A stretch of 64,000 nt of DNA, taken from NCBI GenBank assembly GCA_016213435.1, contig JACRAL010000098.1:141-64140 (forward strand), in the 5' to 3' direction. Shown piece after piece: positions 24,234 to 60,472 of this stretch. Both the position numbers and the translations under genes were made by a program. This DNA is from Bacteroidota bacterium (GTDB lineage: Bacteria > Bacteroidota > Bacteroidia > Palsa-948). Each line of letters opens with the position of its first letter. Positions within the stretch are counted from its first letter, which is position 1. Below the pieces are notes generated by a model. It did not search any database. It had not been told where the DNA came from and saw only the letters and a list, made by a program, of their open reading frames with translations.

Positions 24234-24250
24234 CTCACCCCAAAAATCTT

Positions 24251-24264
24251 CCCCTTAGGAGGGG
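24251..24264. repeat. REP-like GC-rich hairpin CCCCT-TAGG-AGGGG between ruvX and def
   Basis: Perfect 5-bp stem with 4-nt loop in an AT-rich intergenic region. Core resembles other elements in the window. Confidence 0.4.
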
Positions 24265-24280
24265 CTTCAAATTTTTAATT

Positions 24281-25519: not shown

Positions 25520-27709
25520 ATGAAAAAAATATTTTTTTACTTCTGTCTTCTTCTTGTTTCGTGCACATCAACCATGAACCCTAATCCATCCGCCATTGAT
25601 CATTTGCCTTATCCACAAACAAAAAAGGTGGACACGACCGATGAGTACTTCGCTGCAAAAATAGCTGACCCTTATCGCTGGCTGGAAGACGATAACTCGG
25701 AAGAAACAAAACAGTGGGTGGAGGCTGAAAATAAAGTTACGTCTGATTACCTTTCTAAAATTCCTTTTCGCCAACAGATAAAGGACCGGCTCACACAGGT
25801 TTGGAACTACGAAAAGTTTACAGCGCCTTTTAAACGCGGCAACTATTATTTCTTCTATAAGAATAATGGTATGCAAAACCAAAGCGTATTGTATGTGCAG
25901 GAAGGGTTGAGCGGAACTCCAAAAGTTCTGATCGATCCTAACACACTTTCTGCCGATGGAACCACTTCGCTTGCCGGCATCAGCATTCGCGAAGATGGAA
26001 GATATATTGCTTACAACCTTTCTAAGTCAGGTTCTGATTGGAATGATATTGTGACGATGGAAATAAAAAATGTTGAGAGGCAAGATTTCCTTTCTCTTCC
26101 TGACACCATTCACTGGGTGAAATTTTCCCAAGCGTCATGGGAAGGCAATGGATTTTATTACAGCACTTATCCTGCTCCAACCAGTCATGCGTATTCGGGC
26201 AAGAATGAAAACAACAAAGCCTATTTTCATCAACTCGGAACAAGCCAGGCAAAAGATAAACTTGTTTACGAAGACAAAAAACATCCGAGTAGGGGATATT
26301 CCATCATCGTTACAGACGACCGGCATTTCATGGGGCTTTTTGGAACCGAATCTACGAGCGGAAGTTCTTTTGCAGTCAAAGACATATCGCAAAAACTAAA
26401 AGAGAATATAGATACGGAAAGTGCTAAATGGAAGGTTATTGATTCTACTTTCAAAAACGATTATAACTTAATTGACAATATTGGCGACATGCTCCTTGTA
26501 CACACAAATGCGAATGCGCCTAAGTGGCAGCTTGTGATGATTGATCCTGCAAAACCTCAGCCGGAGAACTGGAAAAAAATTCTTCCTGAAAGCAATGATT
26601 TGCTTGAAAGCATTTCTCTCTGCAACGGAAAATTTTTTGCAAAATATCTGCATGATGTAACCAATAAACTTTGTATCTATGATTTAGATGGTAAGCTGGA
26701 AAAAGAAATCCCTGTTCCTCCTCTTGGTGTTGTCGATTTCAGTTCGGATAAAAAAGACAGCATTGCGTTTTATTCTTTTACTAATTACACCACACCTAAA
26801 ACAATTTACAAATACAGCATGGGTTCAAATACTTCCGAAGTATTTTTTAAGCCGAAAGTTGATTTTAATTCTGATAATTACGAAAGCAAGCAGGTTTTTT
26901 ATTCAAGCAAGGATGGAACAAAAATTCCGATGATCATTACTTACAAGAAAGGAATTACTCTTGACGGGAACAACCCCTGCTTCCTGTACGGCTATGGAGG
27001 ATTTGACATCAGTGTAACACCAGCGTTCATTACAAACTCTGTTGCGTTTTTGGAAAATGGCGGAGTGTATGCGGTGGCGAACATGCGTGGAGGAGGGGAG
27101 TATGGAGAAGAGTGGCACAAAGCGGGTATTGTTTGCAACAAGCAAAATGTGTTTGATGATTTCATTGCAGCAGTAGAATATCTCATCAAAGAAAAATATA
27201 CTTCGTCAGAAAAACTGGCAGTGCATGGCCGTTCCAACGGAGGGCTTCTCATCGGTGCAGTCATGACTCAGCGCCCAGACCTGATGAAAGTCGCTTTGCC
27301 GGGTGTTGGGGTGTTGGATATGCTGCGCTATCATAAATTCACTATCGGACATGCATGGGCGAGCGATTACGGAACAAGCGACAACAAAGAGCAGTTTGAT
27401 TGCCTGGTAAAATATTCTCCTCTGCATAATGTGAAAGAAATACAATATCCTGCAACGATGATCATGACCGGAGATCACGATGATCGCGTTGTGCCTGCCC
27501 ACTCGTTTAAGTTTGCGGCAACAATGCAGGAAAAAAATAAAGGAGTAAATCCGATTCTCATCCGCATTGACCAAAAAGCAGGTCACGGAGCAGGTAAGCC
27601 GACTTCAAAACAAATTGACGAATGGTCAGATGTCTGGAGTTTTGTGTTTTATAATCTGGGAATGGAGGTAAAAATTCAGGAGGCAGATCTTCCTGAGGGA
27701 AAGAAATAG
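25520..27709 (+). CDS. prolyl oligopeptidase family (S9A) serine peptidase, lipoprotein
   Basis: 729 aa. N-terminal beta-propeller region, catalytic GRSNGGLL (GxSxGG) and C-terminal Asp/His region. Signal peptide with LVSC lipobox. Confidence 0.85.
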   Translation: MKKIFFYFCLLLVSCTSTMNPNPSAIDHLPYPQTKKVDTTDEYFAAKIADPYRWLEDDNSEETKQWVEAENKVTSDYLSKIPFRQQIKDRLTQVWNYEKFTAPFKRGNYYFFYKNNGMQNQSVLYVQEGLSGTPKVLIDPNTLSADGTTSLAGISIREDGRYIAYNLSKSGSDWNDIVTMEIKNVERQDFLSLPDTIHWVKFSQASWEGNGFYYSTYPAPTSHAYSGKNENNKAYFHQLGTSQAKDKLVYEDKKHPSRGYSIIVTDDRHFMGLFGTESTSGSSFAVKDISQKLKENIDTESAKWKVIDSTFKNDYNLIDNIGDMLLVHTNANAPKWQLVMIDPAKPQPENWKKILPESNDLLESISLCNGKFFAKYLHDVTNKLCIYDLDGKLEKEIPVPPLGVVDFSSDKKDSIAFYSFTNYTTPKTIYKYSMGSNTSEVFFKPKVDFNSDNYESKQVFYSSKDGTKIPMIITYKKGITLDGNNPCFLYGYGGFDISVTPAFITNSVAFLENGGVYAVANMRGGGEYGEEWHKAGIVCNKQNVFDDFIAAVEYLIKEKYTSSEKLAVHGRSNGGLLIGAVMTQRPDLMKVALPGVGVLDMLRYHKFTIGHAWASDYGTSDNKEQFDCLVKYSPLHNVKEIQYPATMIMTGDHDDRVVPAHSFKFAATMQEKNKGVNPILIRIDQKAGHGAGKPTSKQIDEWSDVWSFVFYNLGMEVKIQEADLPEGKK

Positions 27710-28133: not shown

Positions 28134-28156
28134 CAAATAAACCAAAATCAACACCT

Positions 28157-28180
28157 GTCCTCTCCCTTTAGGGAAGGGAC
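28157..28180. repeat. REP-like hairpin TCCCTT-TAGGG-AAGGGA immediately upstream of cinA start
   Basis: 6-bp stem, core CCCTTTAGGGA shared with the element inside rarA. Confidence 0.4.
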
Positions 28181-28187
28181 ACCTCTA

Positions 28188-29519
28188 ATGTTCGCAGAAA
28201 TAATTTCCATAGGTGATGAGATTCTTATCGGGCAGATCACAAACTCCAATGCACAATGGATGGCTCAGCAGCTGAATCTTATCGGCATCTCGGTAAAGCA
28301 AATCAGCACTGTTGGCGACAATCGCGAAGATGTTATTAGAATATTTTCAGAAGCACTGCAGCGTGCAGATATCATTCTTATTACAGGAGGACTTGGACCC
28401 ACAAATGACGACATAACTAAACAATGTCTCTGTGATTTTTTTAAGACAAAACTTGTTTTCAACGAGCAGTGTTTTGAAGATGTAAAAAAAATGTTTTCTG
28501 ATCGAAATCTTGGAATGCCTGCCATCAACAAAGGTCAAGCAGAACTTCCGGAAAACTGTATTCCTATCAGAAATAAAAATGGAACTGCTCCGGGGATGTG
28601 GTTTGAAGCCCCACCCCAACCCTCCCCGTTAGGGAGGGAGAAAAATCAACAGCAAGTCCTCCCTAATGGGGAGGATATAGGAGGGGCTCTTTTTGTTTCC
28701 CTCCCGGGAGTTCCCTATGAAATGAAAGCAATGATGTCGGATTTTGTGATCCCTGAACTTCAAAAAAGATTTCAAAGAAATTTCATTGTTCACAAAACGG
28801 TTCATACGCAGGGAATCGGAGAATCAGCTCTTGCAGAAAAAATAAAAGAATGGGAGGACTCTCTTGCCAAACATGAAATCAAGCTAGCTTATCTTCCTTC
28901 ACCCGGGCAGGTAAAACTTCGGGTATCTCTAAACGGGAATGATCAGAAAAAAATTACTGACTTGGTCGATGAAAAAATCAACGAGTTAAGGCAATTAATC
29001 CCCGAATACATTTTTGCTACAGAAGAATTCGGAAAAGAGCCGGAGACGCTGGAAAAAGTTATAGGAGAAATTCTCCGAAAGAAAAAGAAAACACTTGCTG
29101 TCGCAGAAAGTTGTACGGGTGGTTATATTGCGCATCTCATTACAAGTATTGCCGGAAGCTCGGATTATTTCAATGGCGGAATTATCGCTTATGCAAATGA
29201 AATGAAAATTAATGTGTTGAAGGTGGATGTAAAAATTTTGGAAGAGAAAGGAGCTGTTTGTAAGGACGTGGCCGAGCAAATGTCAGACGGTGTTAGAAAA
29301 AGACTGAAGGCAGATTTTGGAATTTCAACTACAGGTATTGCAGGACCAACCGGTGGAAGCGCTGAAAAACCGGTTGGTACAGTTTGGATTTCGGTTACGT
29401 CTGACACTGAAATTATATCCGAAAAATTTAATTTCGGCAATAACAGGGAAAGAAATATTCGAAGAGCTTCTTTATCTGCCTTAAATATGTTGAGAACCCT
29501 GTTAGAAAAACATTCCTAA
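28188..29519 (+). CDS. cinA: competence/damage-inducible protein CinA (with about 24-aa in-frame insertion encoded by GC-rich hairpins)
   Basis: N-terminus AEIISIGDEILIGQITNSNAQW, GTAPGMWFE ... LPGVPYEMK motifs, C-terminal CinA domain. 443 aa versus about 415 typical. Confidence 0.85.
   Translation: MFAEIISIGDEILIGQITNSNAQWMAQQLNLIGISVKQISTVGDNREDVIRIFSEALQRADIILITGGLGPTNDDITKQCLCDFFKTKLVFNEQCFEDVKKMFSDRNLGMPAINKGQAELPENCIPIRNKNGTAPGMWFEAPPQPSPLGREKNQQQVLPNGEDIGGALFVSLPGVPYEMKAMMSDFVIPELQKRFQRNFIVHKTVHTQGIGESALAEKIKEWEDSLAKHEIKLAYLPSPGQVKLRVSLNGNDQKKITDLVDEKINELRQLIPEYIFATEEFGKEPETLEKVIGEILRKKKKTLAVAESCTGGYIAHLITSIAGSSDYFNGGIIAYANEMKINVLKVDVKILEEKGAVCKDVAEQMSDGVRKRLKADFGISTTGIAGPTGGSAEKPVGTVWISVTSDTEIISEKFNFGNNRERNIRRASLSALNMLRTLLEKHS
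28611..28711. repeat. cluster of three GC-rich REP-like hairpins embedded in-frame in cinA
   Basis: Hairpins CCCTCC(C)-CGTTA-GGGAGGG, CCTCCC-TAAT-GGGGAGG and palindrome CTCCCGGGAG. They encode PPQPSPLGREKNQQQVLPNGEDIGGALFVS between the conserved WFE and LPGVP motifs. Confidence 0.6.
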
Positions 29520-29570: not shown

Positions 29571-30020
29571 ATGAATACGACAAGATTTCTTCTTTCTTGG
29601 ATTCTGAGTGCATTGGTAATGTTTTCCCTTTCGTACTTATGGCATGGCGTTTTTTTGAATGATCTGCAACGCCTGTCCTATCCTAAAGGAATCTTCCTCA
29701 CCGGTTGCATCATCACTTATCTGATACTTGGGTTTCTTGTTACAAAAATTTATTTAATGAACTATCCGAAATCCATTGCGCGAAAACCGCTTGTCAGAGG
29801 ATTGATTGCAGGCTCGGTGCTTGGGGTATGCACGTATATTGTTTCACTTGTAGTTGGGGTTTCTTTTAATTATACACTTACTCTTGGCAACATCCTTTTT
29901 GACCTTTTATGGCAAACCGTAGAGCAAACCTTCGGAGGAGTTGTAGTTGCATTTGTCTATATCTGGATTTACGAAGGAAATCCTGTTGAGGTGATCGGCC
30001 GAAAAATGTTTGGTGATTAG
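29571..30020 (+). CDS. hypothetical membrane protein (4 TM)
   Basis: 149 aa, hydrophobic helices. Confidence 0.4.
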   Translation: MNTTRFLLSWILSALVMFSLSYLWHGVFLNDLQRLSYPKGIFLTGCIITYLILGFLVTKIYLMNYPKSIARKPLVRGLIAGSVLGVCTYIVSLVVGVSFNYTLTLGNILFDLLWQTVEQTFGGVVVAFVYIWIYEGNPVEVIGRKMFGD

Positions 30021-31339
30021 TATCCGTATTTCTCCTTCCAGTTCTTCTTCAAAAATTTCCGAAATCTTTTCTCTGCATCATTATCTCCCGGTTCATACCA
30101 TTTTGTGCCGCTTAATTCATCCGGAAGAAATTCTGCATTTATAAAATTTCCTTCATAGCTATGAGCATATTGATACTCTTTTCCATAGTTAAGATCTTTC
30201 ATCAGTTGAGTGGGAGCGTTGCGGATAGAAAGCGGAACGGATAGATCGCCAGTTTTTTTTACCGCTTCCTGCGCAGTTCCGATTGCTTTGTAAGAAGCAT
30301 TGCTTTTAGGAGAACAGGCAAGGTAAACAACCGCTTGTGAAAGAATAATTCTTGCTTCCGGCAGGCCAATTGCATTTACTGCCTGAAAACAATTATTAGC
30401 AAGAACAAGCGCCATCGGATTTGCATTGCCCACATCTTCCGAAGCGAGAATGAGCAATCTTCTGGCTATGAAAAGAGGATCTTCACCGCCTTCAATCATT
30501 CTTGCTAAGTAGTAAACTCCCGCATTTGGATCACTGCCACGTATTGATTTGATGAATGCGGAAATAATATCGTAATGCTGCTCGCCCGTTTTATCATACA
30601 AAGCCATTTTCTGCTGAACAACATTCAAAAGATTTTCATCAGTGATTACGATATCTTGCACCCCGCCCTGAAGGGAGCTATTGTCATCACTTTCCCCCTT
30701 TAGGGACGGGGTAATCGAACTCACATATAACTCCAATGCGTTATATAACTTCCTTACATCACCGCCTGAAAGACGAAGCAACGCATCACTTTCTTTCACA
30801 ATTATTTTTTTCTTTTTTAATATCTCATCTGCATGAATTGCATAATCAATGAGTGAGATCAAATCCTGTTTTTCCAGATGATTCAACAAATAAACCTGGC
30901 AGCGAGAAAGCAAAGCGGAAATTACTTCGAACGAAGGATTTTCTGTTGTGGCTCCGATCAGCGTAATGGTTCCTTTCTCCACTGCTCCAAGCAAAGAATC
31001 TTGTTGTGCCTTGCTGAAACGATGAATTTCATCTATGAAAAGTATAGGATAATTTGTTCCGAAAAATGAATCAGCGGATGCTTTGTCAATTACCTCGCGT
31101 ATGTCTTTGACTCCTGAATTGATTGCGCTCAGCTGGTAATAGGGGCGTTTTAGTTGAGTGGCAATGATCCTTGCCAGTGTTGTTTTTCCTACGCCCGGAG
31201 GTCCCCATAAGATCATGGAAGGAATAGTTCCGGCTTCAATGGCTCTTCTGAGAATAGCGCCTTCGCCCACAAGGTGTTTCTGACCGATAAATTCATTCAG
31301 CGTTTTAGGACGAAGCCGCTCTGCTAAAGGAATACTCAT
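30017..31339 (-). CDS. rarA: replication-associated recombination protein A (AAA ATPase RarA/MgsA)
   Basis: Walker A GPPGVGKTTLARIIA, Walker B LFIDEIHRF, and C-terminal MgsA helical/tetramerisation region with YDxxGEQHYDIISAFIKSIRGSD. Confidence 0.9.
   Translation of the reverse strand: MSIPLAERLRPKTLNEFIGQKHLVGEGAILRRAIEAGTIPSMILWGPPGVGKTTLARIIATQLKRPYYQLSAINSGVKDIREVIDKASADSFFGTNYPILFIDEIHRFSKAQQDSLLGAVEKGTITLIGATTENPSFEVISALLSRCQVYLLNHLEKQDLISLIDYAIHADEILKKKKIIVKESDALLRLSGGDVRKLYNALELYVSSITPSLKGESDDNSSLQGGVQDIVITDENLLNVVQQKMALYDKTGEQHYDIISAFIKSIRGSDPNAGVYYLARMIEGGEDPLFIARRLLILASEDVGNANPMALVLANNCFQAVNAIGLPEARIILSQAVVYLACSPKSNASYKAIGTAQEAVKKTGDLSVPLSIRNAPTQLMKDLNYGKEYQYAHSYEGNFINAEFLPDELSGTKWYEPGDNDAEKRFRKFLKKNWKEKYGY
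30664..30711. repeat. GC-rich REP-like element (CCCTGAAGGG ... CCCCCTTTAGGGACGGGG) in-frame in the rarA linker
   Basis: Encodes KGESDDNSSLQGG in a linker about 11 aa longer than in E. coli RarA (sequence recalled from memory). Confidence 0.45.
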
Positions 31340-31422: not shown

Positions 31423-31497
31423 GGTGGTTGTAGCTCAGTTGGTTAGAGCACTAGATTGTGGTTCTAGGGGTCGCGGGTTCAAGTCCCGTCATCCACC
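31423..31497 (+). tRNA. tRNA-His (anticodon GTG) with genomically encoded G-1; no encoded CCA
   Basis: Cloverleaf read by hand: G-1, acceptor GTGGTTG/CATCCAC, D-arm GCTCAGTTGGTTAGAGC, anticodon stem CTAGA/TCTAG with loop TTGTGGT, T-arm GCGGGTTCAAGTCCCGT, discriminator C. Confidence 0.8.
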
Positions 31498-31694
31498 CTT
31501 CTTCAAATTACATTGCGACTCTGACGCACTAGTACTCCTGCGTCAGTAGTCAGAGTGCAGGTCAAAGCGTCAGCATTCAAGTCCCGTCATCCACCCTTCT
31601 TCAAATTACATTGCGGCTCTGACGCACTAGTACTCCTGCGTCAGTAGTCAGAGTGCAGGTCAAAGCGTCAGCATTCAAGTCCCGTCATCCACCC
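31478..31694 (+). repeat. 98-bp tandem repeat (2.2 copies) seeded in the tRNA-His 3' end; the 21-mer TTCAAGTCCCGTCATCCACCC occurs three times
   Basis: Copies at about 31478-31498, 31576-31596 and 31674-31694. The intervening 77-bp units differ by a single nt and contain the hairpin CTGACGCA-N10-TGCGTCAG. Confidence 0.8.
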
Positions 31695-35473: not shown

Positions 35474-36211
35474 TTATATTTTATCCTTATTTGTTACATA
35501 TAATTCAGGTAATGTTATCTCAGTTACATTATTTACAATGAGGTTGTAGTTTACCATAAATTCTCCTTTAGGTCCCGTTTCTAACCGCTGCCGGATTGGA
35601 TTATCTCTCAAAGAAAGCATTCTTTCTTTATCATAAGGAGCGGCAGTATTTAATGCTATTCCATTCAGGATACCAACAGCACGGGCGATATTATTTTCAT
35701 TGGGATAAAGAAATGTTCCATTATTACCTAAAAATGTATTAACGACAAATCCTACATTTTGGAACATTTCTAAAGTATATTCACCACAAATACCAGTAAG
35801 AGTTTGAAATTTTAATTGATTAATGGCTGATATAGCAGCACGCACCAAAACTACGCTGATTCCTTTTCCTTTTACTTTATTTGAATTCCAAAGCCCGCAT
35901 AATTCTCCCGCACCTCCATCAATTGCATATTTCTTAACTACCTCATAAATTCTGGCATCCATTTTTCCAATGGCGCCTTCTATAGGAAGAGGAAATATTC
36001 CATTGGCTACTTGTATTCGAATTCCACCTACTAATTCATTTGATTCATCGGTTGCAATAAAACAGTAAACATTGGGATTATTTATCCAGTGGTTATTGTT
36101 AGAGGTAATATTCTCAATGCCATAATCTTTTAGTACTTGTACATGACCTTTTATATACTCTTTGCAAGTAGCAGATTCATCAATTGCCCGATATGCTCGT
36201 ATTAGGATCAT
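35474..36211 (-). CDS. GNAT-family N-acetyltransferase candidate
   Basis: 245 aa. VVLVRAAISAI...KGKGIS resembles the acetyl-CoA-binding motif A region. Start abuts the stop of the upstream kinase. Confidence 0.4.
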   Translation of the reverse strand: MILIRAYRAIDESATCKEYIKGHVQVLKDYGIENITSNNNHWINNPNVYCFIATDESNELVGGIRIQVANGIFPLPIEGAIGKMDARIYEVVKKYAIDGGAGELCGLWNSNKVKGKGISVVLVRAAISAINQLKFQTLTGICGEYTLEMFQNVGFVVNTFLGNNGTFLYPNENNIARAVGILNGIALNTAAPYDKERMLSLRDNPIRQRLETGPKGEFMVNYNLIVNNVTEITLPELYVTNKDKI

Positions 36212-36254
36212 ATTATATCGCTATTTGGATATATTGGCTTTTTGGTGAAAAATA

Positions 36255-36410
36255 TGAGCTTTCCGGCAGAGGATATGAGCTTTTCGGTGGACGATTTGAC
36301 ATTTCCTGTAGAGGATTTGAGCTTTCCGGTGGACGATTTGACATTTCCTGTAGAGGATTTGAGCTTTCCGGTATAGGATTTGAGCTTTCCGGTAGACGAT
36401 TTGACATTTA
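36255..36410. repeat. 21-bp tandem repeat, about 7.4 units (GAGCTTTCCGGTGGACGATTT / GACATTTCCTGTAGAGGATTT alternating; 42-bp higher-order period), filling the gap between the ThiF-nitroreductase gene stop and the GNAT gene start
   Basis: Units 2+3 and 4+5 are identical except for one nt. Both strands are open across the array (ORFs 36213-36407 minus and 36184-36441 plus). Confidence 0.8.
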
Positions 36411-38747
36411 TATTATAGAATTTGTGAATTTTAATACTTGATCAAGGGGATATCTTAATGATCTGAATTTCGGGGGATTATCAATTATAAATCGCATTAA
36501 TAGTACTTTTCCTTTTTGAGGATTGATGCCAAATAAATCTTCAAGTTCCTTCAACAAGGTTGTTGCTTCTTTTCGCATGTTATCTGGAAGGGCATCTTTT
36601 TTACCATATACTAAAGTATTAAATATTAAAATTGATAAAGAAGGAGGGTGGGTGGAGATGTTATCATGATTGGCAGCCAGCCATACTCTTTCTAAAGCCC
36701 GACCGCCTTGGTAAAAATTATTGGTTGTGAATGAAGGCACTGTTAACAGCCCGACAGCGGCTGAGCCGCGAATCCACTTGCGTTGAATTTTTCCAAATGC
36801 AGAACCTAATTCCCAATCGGCAAGATGTTTAACAACCGACCAATCTTTGCTTACAAAAAATCCGGCAAATTCTGTTGGAGTTAGATCCATTGTTTCCTGA
36901 AAGCTAATTCCGTTTCTTGTTCTTTCCGCTTCTTCAATAGTCCAACGAGCTTCTCCTCTAAAATCATTATGTCCTCCTTTGCTCAGATACCTGATTCGAT
37001 CCATCTTGGCGGTTATCTCACTTAGTTTAATGAGCTTATCTTCATCATCTATAATAATCATATCTGCTCCGGGAATGGTGCGGGCAATTTCTTGTAGTTT
37101 ATTTAACCTGTTTTTTTCAATTGTTTTTCTTTGTACAATTGTTCTGTTTGATACTCTGGAGTTGATTGTTTTAGATAAGTGGTCGCACACATGGGGTTCC
37201 AGTTTATCTTTTATTTCAGCATGTGCTGTATCAAAAAAACGAAAGGTGGTTATTAATTTTGTATCGTCATTAATTTCCACTGTTTGAGCTGCTACTTCCA
37301 GTCCGAGCTCATGGGCTTTTAATACCAAATTTTCGGCTGCTGCTCCAAGCCCCGTAATCATGGTTGTTCTTTGGCAATCCAATAAATCGGGACGGAACAC
37401 ATCATCAAAAAAGAAGTATAGATTTTTGTTGTGATACATCCATTTCCATGTCTGGCTGTTTGCTCCGGAGGGAGCTTTAGAGGCAGCTTCGGCTAATTGT
37501 TTAATTGTGTTTTCCGGCAGATCAATTTGTAAGTTCCAGGTTTCTTGATGGGCTGAATGGATTATATCTAACATTTCTTTATCACTCAAAGATGGTTTGA
37601 TATTCAAAGGCTGCTCGATATATTCTTTTGTGTTTTTATCTTTTATTACCTCTTCCAGATCCACAAAATATCTTCCCGAATCATGCAGTTGATTCAGCAA
37701 AACTCTTCGGCACACATCCGCACATATTCCCCCGCCCAAAACCACACCCGATGCCAATTGAGGCCAGGTTGTTATTGTTTGTTCAATTTCCAGCATAGAA
37801 GCCCTTAGCCGGGTGGATGAAGTTTCTACTCCTAACATGGGTAACAGATAAGGAACTTTTTCTTCATTGGTCTTGGCCTGTTTTACTAAACTCAAATCCA
37901 AGTGATCAATCAATCCGTGCAAGATTGGTAATTCAGGGTTTAGATCATAGCGCTCTATATCGGTTGTTCCTTTATCGCTTGAATTCATAACAACGGGAAT
38001 ACGCAGTGACTTTGCTTTTTGACGTGTAAATATCTTTGTATACAAACCATCGCATACCTCAATGCATACATCTAACTTGCCATCTTTTAGAAAAAAGTCA
38101 TCTGCATTTGCTTCGGTTAGTCCATCAGAATACCAGGTAACTTTTAAATAAGGATCAATTTCCGAGATTTCTCTGGCTACCACAATCGTTTTTTTAATTC
38201 CAAAGTTTTGAACTCCGGTTTGTATGCGGTTTAGGTTAGAGAGTTCAATAACATCAAAATCTGCAATCCGGAGCTCACTGCATATTCGTTCCATGGCTAT
38301 GGTTAAAGCAATGGCTTTTCCTACAGACAATCCTATTACTCCAATTTTTTTTGTTGCAAGTATTTTTTCCTCCTCAGGAGTTATCTTATAATGATTCCTA
38401 TTTGTTCTTACTTCCACAAATTCTTTTTCATCCAATATATGTATCAACTTTTTTGACCAAGGGTAGTAAACCCAAACACCGTATTCTTCACTCGGTATAG
38501 AGCCAATATGTTTTTTAGCTGCTTCGGTTAAAGCGCTTTTAGTAAATACTATTTTAGGATTTTGAGATTTTACGAGTTCTTCCAATTGCCCCTGAAGCTC
38601 ATCAAATACATTTATATCGGGGGTTTCTTTAAGTAATTGCGTCAGCTTGTTGTTGTCAGAGGCGTTATTTAAGCGAAAAAACAATGGGTAAGCAACTGTT
38701 TCGCTCGATTTAGTTTGTTTGCATAAAATGGCTAATTTATCCTTCAT
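36408..38747 (-). CDS. E1-like (ThiF/MoeB-fold) - nitroreductase-like (SagB-type dehydrogenase fold) fusion protein, Rv1355c/MoeY-like architecture
   Basis: Rossmann KKIGVIGLSVGKAIALTIAMERICSELRIADFDVIELSNLNRIQ (E1-like nucleotide-binding). C-terminal ASKAPSGANSQTWKW is the nitroreductase-family FMN-binding signature. Confidence 0.65.
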   Translation of the reverse strand: MKDKLAILCKQTKSSETVAYPLFFRLNNASDNNKLTQLLKETPDINVFDELQGQLEELVKSQNPKIVFTKSALTEAAKKHIGSIPSEEYGVWVYYPWSKKLIHILDEKEFVEVRTNRNHYKITPEEEKILATKKIGVIGLSVGKAIALTIAMERICSELRIADFDVIELSNLNRIQTGVQNFGIKKTIVVAREISEIDPYLKVTWYSDGLTEANADDFFLKDGKLDVCIEVCDGLYTKIFTRQKAKSLRIPVVMNSSDKGTTDIERYDLNPELPILHGLIDHLDLSLVKQAKTNEEKVPYLLPMLGVETSSTRLRASMLEIEQTITTWPQLASGVVLGGGICADVCRRVLLNQLHDSGRYFVDLEEVIKDKNTKEYIEQPLNIKPSLSDKEMLDIIHSAHQETWNLQIDLPENTIKQLAEAASKAPSGANSQTWKWMYHNKNLYFFFDDVFRPDLLDCQRTTMITGLGAAAENLVLKAHELGLEVAAQTVEINDDTKLITTFRFFDTAHAEIKDKLEPHVCDHLSKTINSRVSNRTIVQRKTIEKNRLNKLQEIARTIPGADMIIIDDEDKLIKLSEITAKMDRIRYLSKGGHNDFRGEARWTIEEAERTRNGISFQETMDLTPTEFAGFFVSKDWSVVKHLADWELGSAFGKIQRKWIRGSAAVGLLTVPSFTTNNFYQGGRALERVWLAANHDNISTHPPSLSILIFNTLVYGKKDALPDNMRKEATTLLKELEDLFGINPQKGKVLLMRFIIDNPPKFRSLRYPLDQVLKFTNSII

Positions 38748-40915: not shown

Positions 40916-41127
40916 GTTAAGTGTAAAGTTAAGGATTTTTATTTTGAGTGAAACGAAAATTCATTCCTTACTTCCCGTTCCACAAACACTCTTCCTCATG
41001 TTGTTTGATAAGCACGCCCTGTTTTGCGGAACGGTGTAATAATTCAGGATAACCTGCATAGATTTTTGGATAGTATCTGACACAGATACGTGAACCTGCT
41101 CTTTAAAAGTTAATTCATCGGATGGTT

Positions 41128-41480
41128 CTACTTATTCCTCTGCTTTTTGAATCAACAAAGCGGATGATTTTATTCATTCCTCTGCGTTTTGAATTGCTTC
41201 CTCCGATCATGCTATTCATTCCTCCGCTTTTTGAATCAACAAAGCGGATGATTGTATTCATTCCTCCACCTTTTGAATTATTTCATCCGATAATGCTATT
41301 CATTCCTCGGATTTTTGAATTAACAAAGCGGATGATCCTATTCATTCCTCTTCTTTTTGAATTGCTTCCTCCGCTTTTTGAATAAACAAAGCGGATGATT
41401 GTATTCATTCCTCCACCTTTTGAATTATTTCATCCAATCATGCTATTCATTCATCCACTTTTTGAATCATATCCTCCTAT
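41128..41480. repeat. degenerate tandem array, about 42-bp subunits (TATTCATTCCTC-N5-TTTTGAAT-N17) alternating two variants, giving an 84-bp period with about 4 copies
   Basis: TATTCATTCCTC occurs about 9 times and CTTTTTGAATCAACAAAGCGGATGATT four times. The ORF 41122-41385 is a repeat artefact. Confidence 0.7.
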
Positions 41481-41631
41481 GGTGCTACCATGGTGCAAAA
41501 TAAGGCAAGTAAAATGAGATGGCTTAGGGCTTTAAAGCGTAAGCGTATGGGAGTAAAAAAATAAAAAGAGACAAATGAATGCATTTGACTCTTTTTATTT
41601 CTATCGGGTGAAAGATAGAACTTGCAATCAA

Positions 41632-47535: not shown

Positions 47536-49257
47536 CTAAAAATCGTAATAAACATTGTTCAGAGAAGTGCGGATTCCAAAGTAAATGAAGTTGGTTTGAG
47601 AGTTTTCAATTGTGCTTGTGCTGCTTCGGTTTGAAATTCCAACCAAAATATTAAAGTTTGTTGCAGGATTTATAAGATAGCCGATATGAAAATCGAAAAT
47701 CCGTAGCGTTGTTTTTATGCCTTGTCCCATTTCATTGTGGGTAGAATTTACTCCATATAAAGCATTGTTATCTGAACTGAAAATGTTATTGCCGTAATTT
47801 CTTCCGAGAGAATCTTTGCCGATGATGGCATAATTCACTTTTACTTCAGTAAAGAGATTTCCGATGCGATAATTCAGGAAAGCAATTGCTTCTTTGAAAT
47901 TTGCTCCGAGCGGATGTGCCAGTGGCTGGTTGTAATGCGTGTAGCTCTGAGCAGATTTTTTTGAAGCATACGAATAAGGACGAACTTGGTTGTACTCGAC
48001 TTGCAAGTGCAGATTTCGTAATCCGAACAAGTCGAAATATTTTGCTCCTGCCTGAAACCCTTGTTTATTATGCAATGAATTTCTTGTAAAATCCTTTGAG
48101 ATGTCATCCAGCATGTATTGTCCGTAGAGGGAAATTGAATTAGTGATCTTGCATTTCAATGTCCATCCGAGCAACACGTTGTTTGTTCCCGCCAATCCTT
48201 CGGAGAGTGCAGCATTATAAATAAGCGGACTGAAATAATTAAAGTTCAAATCTTGCTTGTTCATCGAATCGCTTGCCTGCCAGACAATCCCTTGAAAAAA
48301 ACCTAATTGAATTCTCTTGTTGATATTCCAGCTCAGGAATTGAAAATTTCCTGCTTTCTTTTGGAATAATCTTTCTGTGCCGGGAGGAGTCTTTACTCCT
48401 CCATCCGTCAAATTCATGAACACAGTATAGAGATTTGTGTACTGAAATTTTCCAAAAGAAGAAGCGACACGCAGAAAAGGATAATTGAACGCATTGTCGC
48501 TCAGCAAAAGCGAGCGGTAGCCATCTCCAATAAAATGTTTTCCGATACCTGCTTGAAAATTAAAATACTTGCTTGGGGAATAGGAAACGTATCCTGAAGC
48601 CATCGCAAAGTCATAGCCGTTGGTTTTAAATCTTTTCCATCTGCCTTGGCCCGGCACAACCAAGGAAGCATTATTGAAGTCCTGTATGTAATTAACAAAG
48701 GTTGCTTGATTTTCAAGAAAAGAACTTTCAAAAGAAAAGTTTTTTCCTATATCTCCGCGCAGCAAAATTCCACGCATGTTCTTGTAAAATGATTTTGAAG
48801 AATCCGCACGATCTCTTCCATATTCAAAGTTAAAAAGGGGGTCAATGGTGAGGTGGAATTTGTCGGTGGTATCGTTGACGATGAAAAGATTTTCTTTTCT
48901 AAATTTAGTTCCAATTTTTTTCCAAAAGGTGTTTTGGTATATTTTTTCTGAATGCCAAGTGTTAGAAATAATTGGTTTGAAACAGGATGTAGAATCAACA
49001 TTATAATAAGCGACACCGTATCCTCCCCATGCACTTCCCCATGAATCAATTGCGTCACTTTTCCATTTGATTGTATCTGCATGTGAGTTAATTAGAGATC
49101 GATTTTTTTCTCTTCCCAAGCTCCATTCCCTATTCAAGGGCAAATTTTTTTGCTGAGAAAAGAGAAAGATTGGAAAAAAAATAAATAGTCCCGTTAGGGA
49201 CATAATATTTATAGAAAAAATGTCCGCAGATGTATTTGAGTTCTGTAGGAACGACAT
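47536..49257 (-). CDS. outer-membrane beta-barrel protein, paralog of 44599-46197 (true start probably the Met near 49203, MSLTGLFIFF)
   Basis: See paralog. A REP hairpin overlaps the probable start codon. Confidence 0.4.
   Translation of the reverse strand: MSFLQNSNTSADIFSINIMSLTGLFIFFPIFLFSQQKNLPLNREWSLGREKNRSLINSHADTIKWKSDAIDSWGSAWGGYGVAYYNVDSTSCFKPIISNTWHSEKIYQNTFWKKIGTKFRKENLFIVNDTTDKFHLTIDPLFNFEYGRDRADSSKSFYKNMRGILLRGDIGKNFSFESSFLENQATFVNYIQDFNNASLVVPGQGRWKRFKTNGYDFAMASGYVSYSPSKYFNFQAGIGKHFIGDGYRSLLLSDNAFNYPFLRVASSFGKFQYTNLYTVFMNLTDGGVKTPPGTERLFQKKAGNFQFLSWNINKRIQLGFFQGIVWQASDSMNKQDLNFNYFSPLIYNAALSEGLAGTNNVLLGWTLKCKITNSISLYGQYMLDDISKDFTRNSLHNKQGFQAGAKYFDLFGLRNLHLQVEYNQVRPYSYASKKSAQSYTHYNQPLAHPLGANFKEAIAFLNYRIGNLFTEVKVNYAIIGKDSLGRNYGNNIFSSDNNALYGVNSTHNEMGQGIKTTLRIFDFHIGYLINPATNFNILVGISNRSSTSTIENSQTNFIYFGIRTSLNNVYYDF
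49188..49201. repeat. REP element GTCCC-GTTA-GGGAC 3' of the RAYT gene
   Basis: Perfect 5-bp stem. Inverted orientation relative to the REPs at 49761-49824. Confidence 0.6.
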
Positions 49258-49258
49258 A

Positions 49259-49720
49259 TTATTGTATTTCTTTTAAAACATACCGTTCATCGTACTCAAC
49301 ATTAAATTTCTGTAACAATTTCGTGTATTTTTCTTTGAATGTCCTTTTCTGATGATGATGCTCCTGATTATTGATGTATTTAACAACCCTGTCAATATGA
49401 GAGTGAGAATAAGAAAATGCACCATAACCTTCCTGCCATTTGAATTTGCCTTTCACAAATCCTTTTTTATTAATCCAGCCGGAAGAATTTCCCTTAATGT
49501 CTTGCAGTAAATCCGGAATTAATTGGTGTGGCTTGTAGCCAATAAAAATATGAATGTGATCAGCCACGCCATTGATTGCAATCAATTTGTGTTTATTGTT
49601 TTGCACTATGCCTGTAATATATTTATACAACTCATCCTTCCATGAATTATTAATCAGGGAAATTCTATCTTGAACGGAAAATACAAATTGAATGTATAAT
49701 TGGGTGTATGTATTTGCCAT
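49259..49720 (-). CDS. IS200/IS605-family Y1 (HUH) transposase, REP-associated tyrosine transposase (RAYT)-like
   Basis: 153 aa. HUH motif DHIHIFI and GYGAFSYS...YINNQEHHH C-terminal Tyr helix, characteristic of Y1 transposases. Flanked by REP hairpins. Confidence 0.75.
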   Translation of the reverse strand: MANTYTQLYIQFVFSVQDRISLINNSWKDELYKYITGIVQNNKHKLIAINGVADHIHIFIGYKPHQLIPDLLQDIKGNSSGWINKKGFVKGKFKWQEGYGAFSYSHSHIDRVVKYINNQEHHHQKRTFKEKYTKLLQKFNVEYDERYVLKEIQ

Positions 49721-49736
49721 GTTTTGAATATTGTGT

Positions 49737-49824
49737 CCCTATGGGGCTATAAACATTTTGTCCCTAACGGGATTTGCATGGTTGGTTTCTTTTTCTATAA
49801 ATATCCTGTCCCTCACGGGACAGG
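49737..49824. repeat. three REP-like hairpins 5' of the RAYT gene (CCC-TAT-GGGG; TCCC-TAAC-GGGA; CCTGTCCC-TCAC-GGGACAGG), the last abutting the fcl stop codon
   Basis: Read directly. All share the GTCCC...GGGAC core. Confidence 0.6.
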
Positions 49825-58495: not shown

Positions 58496-60472
58496 TTATT
58501 CGGATTGGATACTTGGTTTTTGTTGTTTATCTAACTCTTCATACACTGAATTCTGACTTCTGAACTCAGGTACAATTTCTTTCATTCTTTTTACAATAGC
58601 AGTGCTGTCTTGATTTTGAAGAAGGGAAATCAGCGCACCCACTTTTTCTGAAACTTCCTCGTGTCCATATTCCCTCACCTTGCCAACCATAATCTGAGGA
58701 TTGTGAGTGGGAAGCGTATTTTCTTTTGTGGCAAGAAGTTCTTCGAAAAGTTTTTCCCCCGGACGCAATCCGGTGTAAACTATCTGTATGTCTTTCCCGA
58801 GTGTGAGTCCTGCAAGCTGGATCATCTTTTTGGCGAGGTCAGCAATCTTGACCGACTGTCCCATGTCGAACACAAAAATTTCTCCGCCTTTTCCCATCGC
58901 GCCTGCTTCTAAAACCAATTGGCATGCTTCGGGAATGGTCATAAAAAAACGTGTGATATCCGGATGAGTAACGGATATTGGTCCGCCTCTTTCAATTTGG
59001 TGTCTGAAAAGTTGAATCACCGAACCGTTAGATCCGAGCACATTTCCAAAGCGGGTGGTGATGAATTTGCAGCCCCCTCTAACTCCCCCTTCAGGGGAGG
59101 ATTTATTTTCGCCCTCCCTGAAGGGGAGGGAAGGGGTGGGGCTGAGCGATTGCACATACATCTCCGCAATTCTTTTTGAAGCGCCCATTACGTTGGTGGG
59201 ATTAACGGCTTTATCAGTAGACACCATCACGAATTTTTCTACTCCGTGTTTTACCGCGAGATCGGCCATGATCTTGGTGCCGAGCACATTGGTTTGAATG
59301 GCTTCAAGCGGATGGTGTTCCATCATCGGCACATGCTTGTATGCCGCTGCATGATACACAACTTGGGGAGAATATTTACTGAAAATACTTTCCATCCTTT
59401 CTTTATTTCTCACATCGGCAATCACAATTTCAAAAGAGCGCAGGTGGAAAATATTTTTCAGTTCCATCTCCATTTCATAGAGAGGAGATTCGGCAGTGTC
59501 GATCAGAACTATTTTTTTTGAATTGAATTTTGAAAGCTGTCTCACGATTTCGCTTCCGATAGAACCCGCAGCCCCGGTTACAAGAATCACTTTGTCGCGT
59601 GTCTGCCGTTTGATGTTTTCCATATCAAGTTTGATCGGATTGCGTTCGAGAAGATCTTCAATGCGAACTTTTTTTATCTGCTTGAAACTAAGCTCTCCGT
59701 TTATCCAGCTGCTCACCGGAGGCACATTCAGGATTTTGGTATTGTATTTTAAACATATTTCCACAATTTCTTCTTTTCGTTTCGCGGGAATATTTTGAAC
59801 AGAAATGATCATGTGTGCTACGTTTCCATCTCGTAGAAGTTCTTCCAGTTTGTTAAATCCGTAAATAGTAATTCCTTCCAGTTTGCTTTCCCATTTTTTT
59901 TCGTTGTCGTCAATAAAGGCAAGCACTTTGTATTTCATTCCTGCATCGCGGTCAAGTGTTCGCTTGGTGATGATGCCTGATTCGCCCGATCCGAAAATGA
60001 TGACGCTGGTTTTTGTGCGACTTGGATTTTTCCATTCGAGATAAATGGATTTAAAAATGAGCCGCAGGCTGATCATCAGGAAAGTGGTCGTCATGTATTC
60101 AATGACGAGGATGGAGAAGGGGATAATAAATGTATCTGTAATAAAGTAATATTTTATGATATTGGCAATAGCAAAAAAGATACTGCCAAGTGTGGTGACG
60201 ATAAAAATCCGTTGTGCATCTCTCGAACTGGTATAGCGAACAATGCCTTTATGTGTTTTTGAAATAAAAAAACTCAAAGCACGTACTCCGATTACAAAAG
60301 GGAAAATAAGAGGAAATGTGTCTAATTCCACCTGTGGAATTGCTGCGAAGTTGAAGCGGAGCAAATAGGCGATGATAAGAGCAAAAAAACAAATGAACAG
60401 ATCGATCAGGAAAATTATCCAGCGCGGAGCGGTGCGTTCAAAGAGAAGCATAATTTTTAAATTTGTGTTCAA
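58496..60472 (-). CDS. membrane-anchored polysaccharide biosynthesis protein CapD/PglF/WbpM-like (UDP-sugar 4,6-dehydratase)
   Basis: N-terminal 4 TM. Rossmann ILVTGAAGSIGSEIVRQL, GASKRIAEMYV and RFGNVLGSNGSV motifs. Confidence 0.8.
   Translation of the reverse strand: MNTNLKIMLLFERTAPRWIIFLIDLFICFFALIIAYLLRFNFAAIPQVELDTFPLIFPFVIGVRALSFFISKTHKGIVRYTSSRDAQRIFIVTTLGSIFFAIANIIKYYFITDTFIIPFSILVIEYMTTTFLMISLRLIFKSIYLEWKNPSRTKTSVIIFGSGESGIITKRTLDRDAGMKYKVLAFIDDNEKKWESKLEGITIYGFNKLEELLRDGNVAHMIISVQNIPAKRKEEIVEICLKYNTKILNVPPVSSWINGELSFKQIKKVRIEDLLERNPIKLDMENIKRQTRDKVILVTGAAGSIGSEIVRQLSKFNSKKIVLIDTAESPLYEMEMELKNIFHLRSFEIVIADVRNKERMESIFSKYSPQVVYHAAAYKHVPMMEHHPLEAIQTNVLGTKIMADLAVKHGVEKFVMVSTDKAVNPTNVMGASKRIAEMYVQSLSPTPSLPFREGENKSSPEGGVRGGCKFITTRFGNVLGSNGSVIQLFRHQIERGGPISVTHPDITRFFMTIPEACQLVLEAGAMGKGGEIFVFDMGQSVKIADLAKKMIQLAGLTLGKDIQIVYTGLRPGEKLFEELLATKENTLPTHNPQIMVGKVREYGHEEVSEKVGALISLLQNQDSTAIVKRMKEIVPEFRSQNSVYEELDKQQKPSIQSE
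59083..59130. repeat. two GC-rich REP-like hairpins (CTCCCC-CTTCA-GGGGAG; CCCTCCC-TGAAG-GGGAGGG) in-frame in the capD-like gene
   Basis: They encode about 20 extra residues (PTPSLPFREGENKSSPEGGVRGG) between the conserved YVQSL and TTRFGNV motifs. Confidence 0.55.

Follow-up and report, generated by a model that had tools for sequence, protein, structure and literature searches.

Palindromic repeats that have colonized genes in frame are familiar above all from Rickettsia, where the mobilizing activity has been an open question for more than 20 years. The Rickettsia palindromic elements (RPE) were reportedly presented by Ogata et al. in 2000 as "selfish DNA in protein-coding genes", a work cited in PMC3733652. 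Here, we describe a 51-nt GC-rich palindrome located in frame in the rarA/mgsA gene of a Bacteroidota bacterium (GTDB lineage Palsa-948; assembly GCA_016213435.1). The stretch analyzed, hereafter called the window, comprises 64,000 nt of contig JACRAL010000098.1 (positions 141 to 64,140, forward strand); coordinates refer to the window unless they follow the number of another locus (L), and proteins used for comparison carry P numbers. We consider it likely, with a probability of roughly 0.8, that the insert is a copy of a dispersed non-autonomous palindromic repeat, similar in type to miniature inverted-repeat transposable elements (MITE) or to REPINs, i.e., doublets of repetitive extragenic palindromic (REP) sequences, and that it has been kept in a tolerant loop of RarA. 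The insert, a doublet of two inverted hairpin units, is referred to as the short form; the longer doublets found in the cinA and capD genes of the window are referred to as the long form.

Like RPE, the elements described here form a palindromic repeat family with in-frame copies in housekeeping genes, they leave the host gene intact and under constraint, and their inserted peptide falls in a surface loop (a predicted one in our case). RPE are longer (~100-150 bp), AT-richer, and confined to Rickettsia, whereas the elements studied here are GC-rich, measure 51 nt in the short form and 75-85 nt in the long form, and were found in Bacteroidota, in the present case in a low-GC genome. As judged from these descriptions, length and host make membership of the rarA insert in RPE implausible. 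Most REPs located inside genes are dimers that encode 20-30 aa, and replication or repair genes harbour many of them (Di Nocera et al. 2013, PMC3733652), a preference that RarA and CinA fit. Short palindromic units arranged as inverted dimers, mostly intergenic and in frame in a minority of cases, are common to GTAG/CGTC REPs and to the short form, but the units described here are C-run/G-run hairpins that start with CCCC, are often preceded by TTTA or TTG, and have no tag. The survey of the GTAG and CGTC superfamilies mentions Bacteroidetes once in its main text (PMC3733652). The short form also resembles systems composed of REPINs and REP-associated tyrosine transposases (RAYT; Bertels & Rainey 2011, PMC3116915) in being a doublet of inverted units that forms one long hairpin, is non-autonomous, and is present in many dispersed copies. 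Unlike in those systems, a class-2 RAYT with the same units on its flanks was not found, the Y1 transposase gene of the window being of the subclass 1.2 type and accompanied by other hairpins; and while REPINs are essentially extragenic, short-form copies also occur in genes.

Long-form relatives of the insert, in which a Vsr-fold nuclease resides in conserved essential genes and the same sites are filled in distant taxa, are reminiscent of homing elements, such as inteins, homing endonuclease genes of group I introns, and the Vsr-like EDxHD enzyme I-Bth0305I (PMC2677866; structure 3R3P). In contrast to homing elements, they have no recognizable intron or intein scaffold (no intein family among the Pfam matches and no Rfam match); their open reading frame (ORF) is in frame with the host gene and is bounded by GC-rich hairpins, and the rarA insert lacks a nuclease altogether. 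GC clusters of fungal mitochondria are mobile GC-rich palindromes, found in frame in yeast var1. They offer an analogy only, that of GC-rich palindromes which are sometimes tolerated in frame in an AT-rich genome; fungal clusters are organellar and have no demonstrated relationship to the rarA insert. Motifs CCCTAAAGGG and CCCTTTAGGG occur in Lentinula mitochondrial DNA repeats (PMC6679062). Insertions of this kind, RPE-like or intragenic REP-like, are thus already known. The family itself is apparently undescribed in the accessible full-text literature, where no description of short- or long-form Bacteroidota elements or of in-frame DUF559 cassettes was found; subscription journals were outside the coverage, and an earlier description elsewhere is possible. 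The window presents the same phenomenon in a free-living Bacteroidota lineage, with three genes affected within 31 kb and with filled and empty alleles in close relatives.

A lineage-specific insertion in rarA

By its domain content, the host gene is rarA/mgsA. Its product matches the AAA+ P-loop ATPase core (PF00004, E=1.2e-18), the AAA lid (PF16193, E=1.2e-21), and the MgsA C-terminal domain (PF12002, E=5.4e-69), and phmmer aligned it with E. coli MgsA/RarA (3PVS) over residues 4-426 (E=1.4e-104). The insert reads CCCCGCCCTGAAGGGAGCTATTGTCATCACTTTCCCCCTTTAGGGACGGGG on the plus strand and is translated from the opposite strand in the context ..YVSSIT-PSLKGESDDNSSLQGG-VQDIVITDE... Two inverted units are separated by an 18-20-nt spacer; the element has terminal inverted repeats, as MITE do (CCCCG...CGGGG ends), and is palindromic throughout. 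Its GC content is 61%, compared to 41% in the remainder of rarA and 39% in the window. It folds as one long hairpin both as DNA (−14.9 and −14.2 kcal/mol on the two strands, z −3.4 and −4.2) and as mRNA (−31.5 kcal/mol, z −4.1), and none of 200 shuffled sequences equalled this folding. An 11-mer of the element, CCCTTTAGGGA, occurs seven times in the window with at most one mismatch (0.77 expected; 0 of 100 shuffles reached seven), and all seven occurrences fall within elements described here.

Nearly all of the best 120 RarA homologues in a collection of 5.8 billion proteins are 423-426 aa long, compared to 440 aa in the window. When 24 RarA sequences were aligned, the 16 extra residues were present only in the window protein and in P0001 (94% identity); they were missing in P0002, P0003, and P0004 (92-93% identity) and in all other sequences down to 73% identity (22 orthologues). 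Alignment of DNA with the syntenic contigs L001, L003 (GCA_003168055.1), and L006 revealed a single clean 48-nt gap at the insert. A diverged copy is carried by L004 (JGI) and L005 (Logan), two independent assemblies of the P0001 lineage, so the insert is not an assembly artefact. These sequence comparisons thus confirm a true lineage-specific in-frame insertion, and show that it entered rarA in the common ancestor of the window and P0001 lineages, at a loop past the last helix of the AAA+ lid. Since dS, the synonymous divergence, is ~0.84 between the two carrier lineages, the insertion is old and has persisted while the lineages diverged substantially.

An earlier note on this stretch, made from the letters alone, had proposed that a REP-like element was inserted in frame at 30664-30711, in an inter-domain linker ~11 residues longer than the E. 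coli one, and that the ATPase and C-terminal domains had remained intact. The in-frame insertion is borne out by the absence of 16 aa (48 nt) from the closest orthologues; close relatives differ from the window in linker length, the opposite of the outcome that was to speak against the proposal. Tolerance, too, agrees with the Pfam domains detected and with the substitution rates outside the insert given below. The interval is equal to the net 48-nt indel, while the palindrome spans 51 nt (30661-30711), and the exact junction is ambiguous by ~3 nt because flanking codons differ between filled and empty alleles. The linker is indeed longer than in E. coli, by 13 rather than ~11 residues in the phmmer alignment, but Pfam boundaries move the site from between the domains to the C-terminal end of the AAA lid (AAA_assoc_2, residues 181-267), i.e., to the loop past the last lid helix.

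Outside of the insert, rarA of the window and of L004 differ at a nonsynonymous rate (dN) of 0.024 and a dS of 0.84, a ratio of 0.03, from which we conclude that the gene is functional and under strong purifying selection. In the 20 codons around the insert, the corresponding values are 0.25 and 0.38. An AlphaFold2 model of RarA has a helix at 195-209, a coil with a predicted local distance difference test (pLDDT) score of <50 at 212-226, and a strand at 230-232, and thus places the insert, approximately, in a predicted disordered surface loop past the last lid helix; the region is gapped and variable in comparison with the solved RarA structures 3PVS and 8G28. The insert can be read without stops in only two of six frames, one encoding PSLKGESDDNSSLQGG and the other, on the opposite strand, PRPEGSYCHHFPPLGTG. 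Survival of the insert in a constrained gene would be accounted for by a net length that is a multiple of three and by an orientation and frame that select one of the two stop-free readings, with a hydrophilic peptide rich in Ser, Gly, Asp, and Asn. RarA presumably keeps working because the inserted peptide is a predicted disordered surface loop.

Between the two carrier lineages, the parts of the insert have changed to different extents. Palindromic core bases (CCCC, CCCT-NN-AGGG, GGGG) are identical at all 28 positions, whereas 10 of the 23 non-core bases differ (Fisher p ~1e-4, a hand calculation from two carriers). The identical bases include ~8 synonymous positions, while half of the rarA synonymous sites have changed. 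Conservation of the core far above that of the spacer could reflect selection for a structure at the DNA or RNA level, conversion of the insert by other copies, or a bias in mutation.

Two other features of rarA loci were observed. Proteins P0044 (L246:1501-2823) and P0045, from another Bacteroidota lineage, contain a different RarA insertion of ~18 aa (KFSSKGSTLPISFGEDQCEVG), positioned beyond the helix downstream of the Walker A region; the inserted DNA is rich in AT with no more than faint hairpin traces, and the insertion may be a decayed element. In the sister lineage with the insert, rarA is preceded at a distance of ~260 nt by a 100-aa GIY-YIG nuclease gene (L004:324-626), which the window lacks at the corresponding place.

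A dispersed family of short-form doublets

Metagenome contigs were scanned for two inverted CCCC-N1-2-CCCT-N2-AGGG units separated by a 14-24-nt spacer, and at least 120 loci were recovered. In the low-GC subset of the listed loci (n=95), the consensus is CCCC-RN-CCCTAAAGGGAG-spacer-CTCCCTTTAGGG-NN-GGGG. Because the pattern had been derived from the rarA copy, the match of rarA to it is circular, and positions not fixed by the pattern were therefore tested. The rarA spacer reached a top score of 8 against spacers of the family; the best scores of 200 shuffled spacers had a mean of 1.5 and a maximum of 7 (0/200 reached 8). A copy in L189, CCCCTTCCCTAAAGGGAGAAGACAAGGACAATAGCTCCCTTCAGGGCGGGG, is near-identical to the rarA insert and lies inside a short-chain dehydrogenase (SDR) gene, where it encodes APSLKGEDKDNSSLQGG in the context ..ELEKEL[APSLKGEDKDNSSLQGGEH]GRILPVKCDVR... 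The same element is present in the same frame in an asparaginase-like gene (L197), in a gene for a PD-(D/E)XK nuclease with a DYKTGK motif (L136), and in an MnmG-like gene (L165); the peptides in L189, L197, and L136 are of the form APSLKGED..SLQGG, compared to TPSLKGESDDNSSLQGG in RarA. Judged by its sequence, including likeness at positions outside the pattern, the rarA insert belongs to this dispersed short-form family.

Most copies are intergenic: among the matches listed, 5 of the 95 low-GC doublets lie in long ORFs and 90 do not. An example is L166, where the doublet is situated between what we take, from reading of the sequence, to be arsR-like and arsC-like genes. All five in-gene copies use the hydrophilic frame PSLKGE..LQGG. 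Given this frame use and a family that is ~95% intergenic, the in-gene copies would be the few survivors of a selection filter. An all-against-all comparison of 878 ORFs within 1.5 kb of the 95 low-GC doublets yielded no shared neighbour gene, and a 66-aa concatenation of APSLKGED..LQGG variants had no match at E<=10 in the 5.8-billion-protein collection.

A relative of the insert is present close to rarA, in the spacer upstream of cinA. Its core TCTCCCTTTAGGGAAGGGAC is identical at 19 of 20 positions to unit TCTCCCTTTAGGGAAGGGGC of L136 and L197, and the hairpin is absent from the corresponding spacer in L001, L003, L006, and L007; on these two grounds we interpret it as a solo short-form unit. 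The proposal of the earlier note that this element and the rarA insert share a family therefore stands. Its label "REP-like" fits the architecture and does not extend to the details, as the units bear neither of the tags GTAG and CGTC, and no cognate RAYT bordered by them was found. The GC-rich hairpin at 24240-24270 may be another solo unit.

Many intergenic short-form doublets (among L126-L245, e.g., L166:12790-12890, L204, and L144) have flanks complementary to their own spacer halves, which gives a pattern S-U-S'-U'-S, as in TGAAGAAAATCAATTTG. The full short-form element may thus be ~95 nt long, with an additional stem enclosing each unit in its loop; flanks of this type are absent from the rarA copy.

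Long-form elements and DUF559 cassettes

The set of elements in the earlier note was incomplete, as it missed larger in-frame relatives in cinA and capD. Doublets in both genes contain the long-form unit RCCCCACCCC-RN-CCCTCCCC-N4-GGGAGGG-RG. The window cinA is 63 nt longer than cinA of L001 and L003, which have neither doublet nor unit, while in L006 and L007 a single unit in opposite orientation occupies the exact site of the window doublet; this points to repeated use or remodelling of one cinA site. The capD doublet adds ~20 residues compared to PglF (5BJU) and is positioned directly ahead of the RFGNVLGS motif, and the same site holds a doublet in a metagenome-assembled genome (MAG) of a rumen Prevotellaceae (L091:6400-6520).

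One genome per GTDB species was scanned with the core of the long-form unit. At least 118 loci were found; among the matches listed, 90 belong to Bacteroidota of all major orders, and the others come from Ignavibacteriota, Thermaceae/Oceanithermus, some Alpha- and Betaproteobacteria, Dormiibacterota, Dehalococcoidia, and a Nomurabacteria MAG. Nearly all matches also have the 5' CCCC and the 3' RG, neither of which was required by the pattern. In loci of <50% GC, 29 of 66 units (44%) are embedded in ORFs that extend for 60 or more stop-free codons to either side, and all six frames are used; 115 of 127 copies are stop-free in five or six frames. Host proteins include the isoleucyl-, leucyl-, and valyl-tRNA synthetases (IleRS, LeuRS, and ValRS), acetyl-CoA synthetase, and the capD product. 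With an nhmmer profile built from 127 canonical long-form units, the rarA units gave E=14-16, which is not significant, and the possibility that the rarA insert is itself a long-form element was rejected (profile E ~15). Because the profile misses the rarA units, the two forms are to be regarded as motif-related (CCCC-RN-CCCT...AGGG-RG), not demonstrably as one family. They rarely share an 8-kb locus, the exceptions being L091 and the window.

Long-form units also occur in tandem arrays with periods of ~30, 67, and 120 nt (L024:1400-1560, L080:3650-3750, L015:1320-1500, and L091:1230-1370); some of these fall within ORFs and encode repeated LPFGEG/LPKGEG peptides. On its G-rich strand, the canonical unit (L008-L125; in the window, e.g., the unit at 59120-59143(+)) reads GGGGAGGG-NN-GGGG-T-GGGG. 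With four G-tracts separated by loops of 1-2 nt, it satisfies the sequence rule for a strong G-quadruplex motif, whose formation would compete with that of the hairpin.

In at least 10 loci, a long-form unit abuts a DUF559 domain (PF04480) that is in frame inside a host protein. The hosts are IleRS in four orders, with the same site occupied in all of them (L064:2864-6763(-), L083:2424-6455(+), L073, and L099), LeuRS at two sites (L094 and L098), Lhr helicase (L025 and L123), MetH (L092), and UDP-GlcNAc 2-epimerase (L036); cultured strains are represented by Pedobacter sp. Leaf194 (LeuRS) and Mucilaginibacter sp. OK268 (Lhr). In L064 and L083, the nuclease lies between two inverted long-form units. 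Among solved structures, DUF559 matches the endonuclease-like 3HRL (E=1.4e-22) and, at E=1.6e-3, 3R3P, which is the nuclease domain of I-Bth0305I, an intron homing endonuclease; a survey of PD-(D/E)XK enzymes groups Vsr and DUF559 together (PMC3424549). DUF559 is a nuclease and no known transposase; its cassettes share unit ends with the long form, and with the short form only through an intermediate case in L091.

That the doublets are nuclease-less derivatives of hairpin-bounded DUF559 cassettes spread by homing is plausible for cinA and capD. The case of rarA is weaker, because DUF559 is found neither in the top 120 RarA homologues, nor beside a classical low-GC short-form doublet among the loci listed, nor in the window. 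That all three inserts are non-autonomous remnants, left by nuclease loss, of an undescribed class of Bacteroidota selfish elements in which Vsr-like DUF559 cassettes bounded by hairpins reside in frame in essential genes is a tentative idea with the odds against it. If true, these would be homing-type elements that need neither intron nor intein and are simply translated within the host protein; their hairpin ends, which contain stops in almost none of the six frames, encode Pro/Gly-rich linkers. Units bracketing an in-frame Vsr-like endonuclease are a concrete, testable candidate for the mobilizing activity. The main value of the rarA insert is as an entry point to a superfamily of hairpin elements that is widespread in Bacteroidota and often found inside coding regions. 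Such inserts constitute a natural catalogue of insertion-tolerant loops in conserved enzymes, and they affect annotation by inflating protein lengths and creating spurious low-complexity segments.

Mobilization and alternative explanations

Several observations weigh against our preferred reading of the rarA insert as a copy of a dispersed non-autonomous repeat. There is no second short-form doublet in the 64-kb window, and neither a target-site duplication nor a clean empty-site junction could be read in the filled/empty rarA alignment, where flanking codons have diverged. The metagenome short-form copies have no taxonomy attached, the long-form profile does not recognize the rarA units, and the structural placement of the insert is approximate because the AlphaFold2 alignment was shallow (mean pLDDT 65). 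In the window itself, the hairpins at the only Y1 gene are GTCCC-N4-GGGAC with an AT-rich tail, not CCCC-NN-CCCT-NN-AGGG, and a DUF559 gene is absent.

Because no gene recurs beside short-form copies, a mobilizing enzyme acting in trans is assumed; it could be a Y1/HUH transposase acting on single-stranded hairpins or a DUF559 (Vsr-like) endonuclease, which is flanked by related units in other Bacteroidota. It appears unlikely that the insert was mobilized by the Y1 (IS200-like, RAYT-type) transposase encoded at 49259-49720 and that the two form a true REP/REPIN-RAYT system. Inverted hairpin repeats border the gene on either side and have the core CCC-(G/T)TTA-GGGAC in common with the rarA unit, and a Y1 homologue is located 80 nt from a short-form doublet in L220; yet the hairpins directly flanking the L220 gene are unrelated (AAACCGTTTCAACGGTTT), Y1 genes are present in just 2 of the 120 short-form loci listed, and the GTAG/CGTC tag is absent. 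The motifs of the protein fit subclass 1.2 of Quentin et al. (PMC6006769), which is restricted to Cyanobacteria and Bacteroidetes and is listed there without REPs. On the other side, homologues in L024, L038, and L158 have flanking hairpin repeats of their own, for which reason subclass 1.2 looks repeat-associated. As the hairpins of the window gene differ from the rarA units, its transposase is kept as a weak rival. An explanation in which the rarA doublet is what remained after loss of a DUF559 ORF from between two hairpin units, having arrived by double-strand-break copying of the homing type and not by transposition, is rather unlikely. It draws on the related units that bracket in-frame DUF559 in IleRS, LeuRS, Lhr, MetH, and UDP-GlcNAc 2-epimerase, on the matches of this domain to 3HRL and to the homing-endonuclease domain 3R3P, on cassette ends in L083 that are of the same form as the two halves of the window capD doublet, and on L092, where a complete doublet is present on each side of DUF559 in direct orientation, so that recombination between the two would leave a solo doublet. 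The units at a free-standing DUF559 gene in L091, GGCCCCCAAGCCCCCTAAAGGGGAG, flank it and combine traits of the long and the short form, and distant taxa have the same sites filled (capD in the window and the Prevotellaceae MAG; IleRS in four orders). The short form itself speaks differently: DUF559 is present in none of the best 120 rarA homologues and adjoins no classical low-GC short-form doublet among the loci listed, the rarA units lack significance against the long-form profile, and doublets that are 95% intergenic at unrelated sites fit transposition better than site-specific homing.

Two further explanations were considered. Whatever its origin, the hairpin might be exapted, i.e., kept for a role at the DNA or RNA level, such as pausing of the ribosome between lid and C-terminal domain, mRNA stability, or protein binding. 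The unchanged state of all 28 core bases, with their ~8 synonymous positions, at a dS of 0.84, while 10 of 23 other insert bases differ, is in line with such a role, as are the strong mRNA hairpin (−31.5 kcal/mol, z −4.1) and the long retention of the insert. We nevertheless consider it distinctly unlikely: just two carriers are available for comparison, the closest relatives do without the insert, and the same conservation would be expected if other copies convert the insert or if C/G runs mutate with a bias; no compensatory changes were seen between the two carriers, so that the data are silent on pairing. It is highly improbable that no mobile element was involved and that the linker grew by slippage, duplication, or selection for a longer loop, with a coincidental likeness to the hairpins. 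The RarA loop does vary in length (P0051 has four extra residues, and E. coli and 8G28 differ as well), and a target-site duplication is not visible, but near-identical 51-nt sequences, spacer included, are found in unrelated genes, the GC content of 61% stands out within a 41% GC gene, the long palindrome is equalled by 0 of 200 shuffles, and the insert contains no internal direct repeat of flanking rarA sequence.

Other features of the window

Coordinates of the elements and genes discussed are collected in Table 1.

Table 1. Hairpin elements of the window and the genes associated with them.
Feature	Position	Strand	Description
rarA/mgsA ORF, host gene	30017..31339	-	440 aa; Pfam AAA, AAA_assoc_2, MgsA_C; 3PVS match; dN/dS 0.03 vs L004 orthologue
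51-nt palindromic short-form doublet in rarA	30661..30711	-	coding strand CCCCGTCCCTAAAGGGGGAAAGTGATGACAATAGCTCCCTTCAGGGCGGGG, encodes PSLKGESDDNSSLQGG; net 48-nt, 16-aa in-frame insertion
Unit 1 of doublet, 5' on coding strand	30696..30711	-	CCCC-GT-CCCT-AA-AGGG; core bases same in L004 copy
Doublet spacer, A/T-richer	30676..30695	-	encodes ESDDNSS; diverged from L004 copy, unlike cores; resembles family spacers, e.g., L189
Unit 2 of doublet, inverted	30661..30675	+	CCCC-G-CCCT-GA-AGGG as read on the plus strand
Solo short-form unit in spacer upstream of cinA	28155..28182	+	core TCTCCCTTTAGGGAAGGGAC at 28161-28180
Long-form doublet in frame in cinA (ORF 28188-29519)	28607..28688	+	82 nt; encodes APPQPSPLGREKNQQQVLPNGEDIGGA; nhmmer E=1.8e-10; fold z −4.5
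Long-form doublet in frame in capD/PglF-like gene (ORF 58496-60472)	59071..59143	-	73 nt; encodes SPTPSLPFREGENKSSPEGGVRGG; nhmmer E=3e-7
Possible solo GC-rich hairpin, intergenic, between 138-aa and 188-aa ORFs	24240..24270		CCCCTTAGGAGGGG / CACCCCAAAAATCTTCCCCTTAGGAGGGGC; long-form profile E=30
IS200-like Y1 (HUH) transposase gene, candidate mobilizer	49259..49720	-	153 aa; Pfam Y1_Tnp E=2e-26; DHIH, WQ, YINNQEHHH
Hairpin repeat flanking Y1 gene	49186..49219	+	GTCCCGTTAGGGAC + AT-rich tail; similar GTCCCTGCGGGAC beside L024 Y1 homologue
Three hairpin repeats on the other side of Y1 gene	49733..49824	+	GTCCC-N4-GGGAC type

A GC-rich stretch at 27060-27330 was considered as a further element and rejected, as it is ordinary coding sequence of a 729-aa ORF, whose product we take, by eye, to be a prolyl-oligopeptidase-type peptidase. 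At the gathering threshold, Rfam recognized only tRNA-His in the window; in E-value mode, seven element-rich loci gave only chance matches of the microRNA type. The tRNA-His gene (31424-31498) is followed by two tandem 98-nt repeats that are 99% identical (31478-31575 and 31576-31673), each of which starts with the final 21 nt of the tRNA and contains a palindrome. They may have arisen by tandem duplication of the 3' end of the tRNA with its terminator, or may be the scars of old integrations. Unrelated tandem-repeat arrays are present at 36210-36445 and 41109-41509, with periods of 21 nt (nine copies) and 42 nt (seven copies), respectively.

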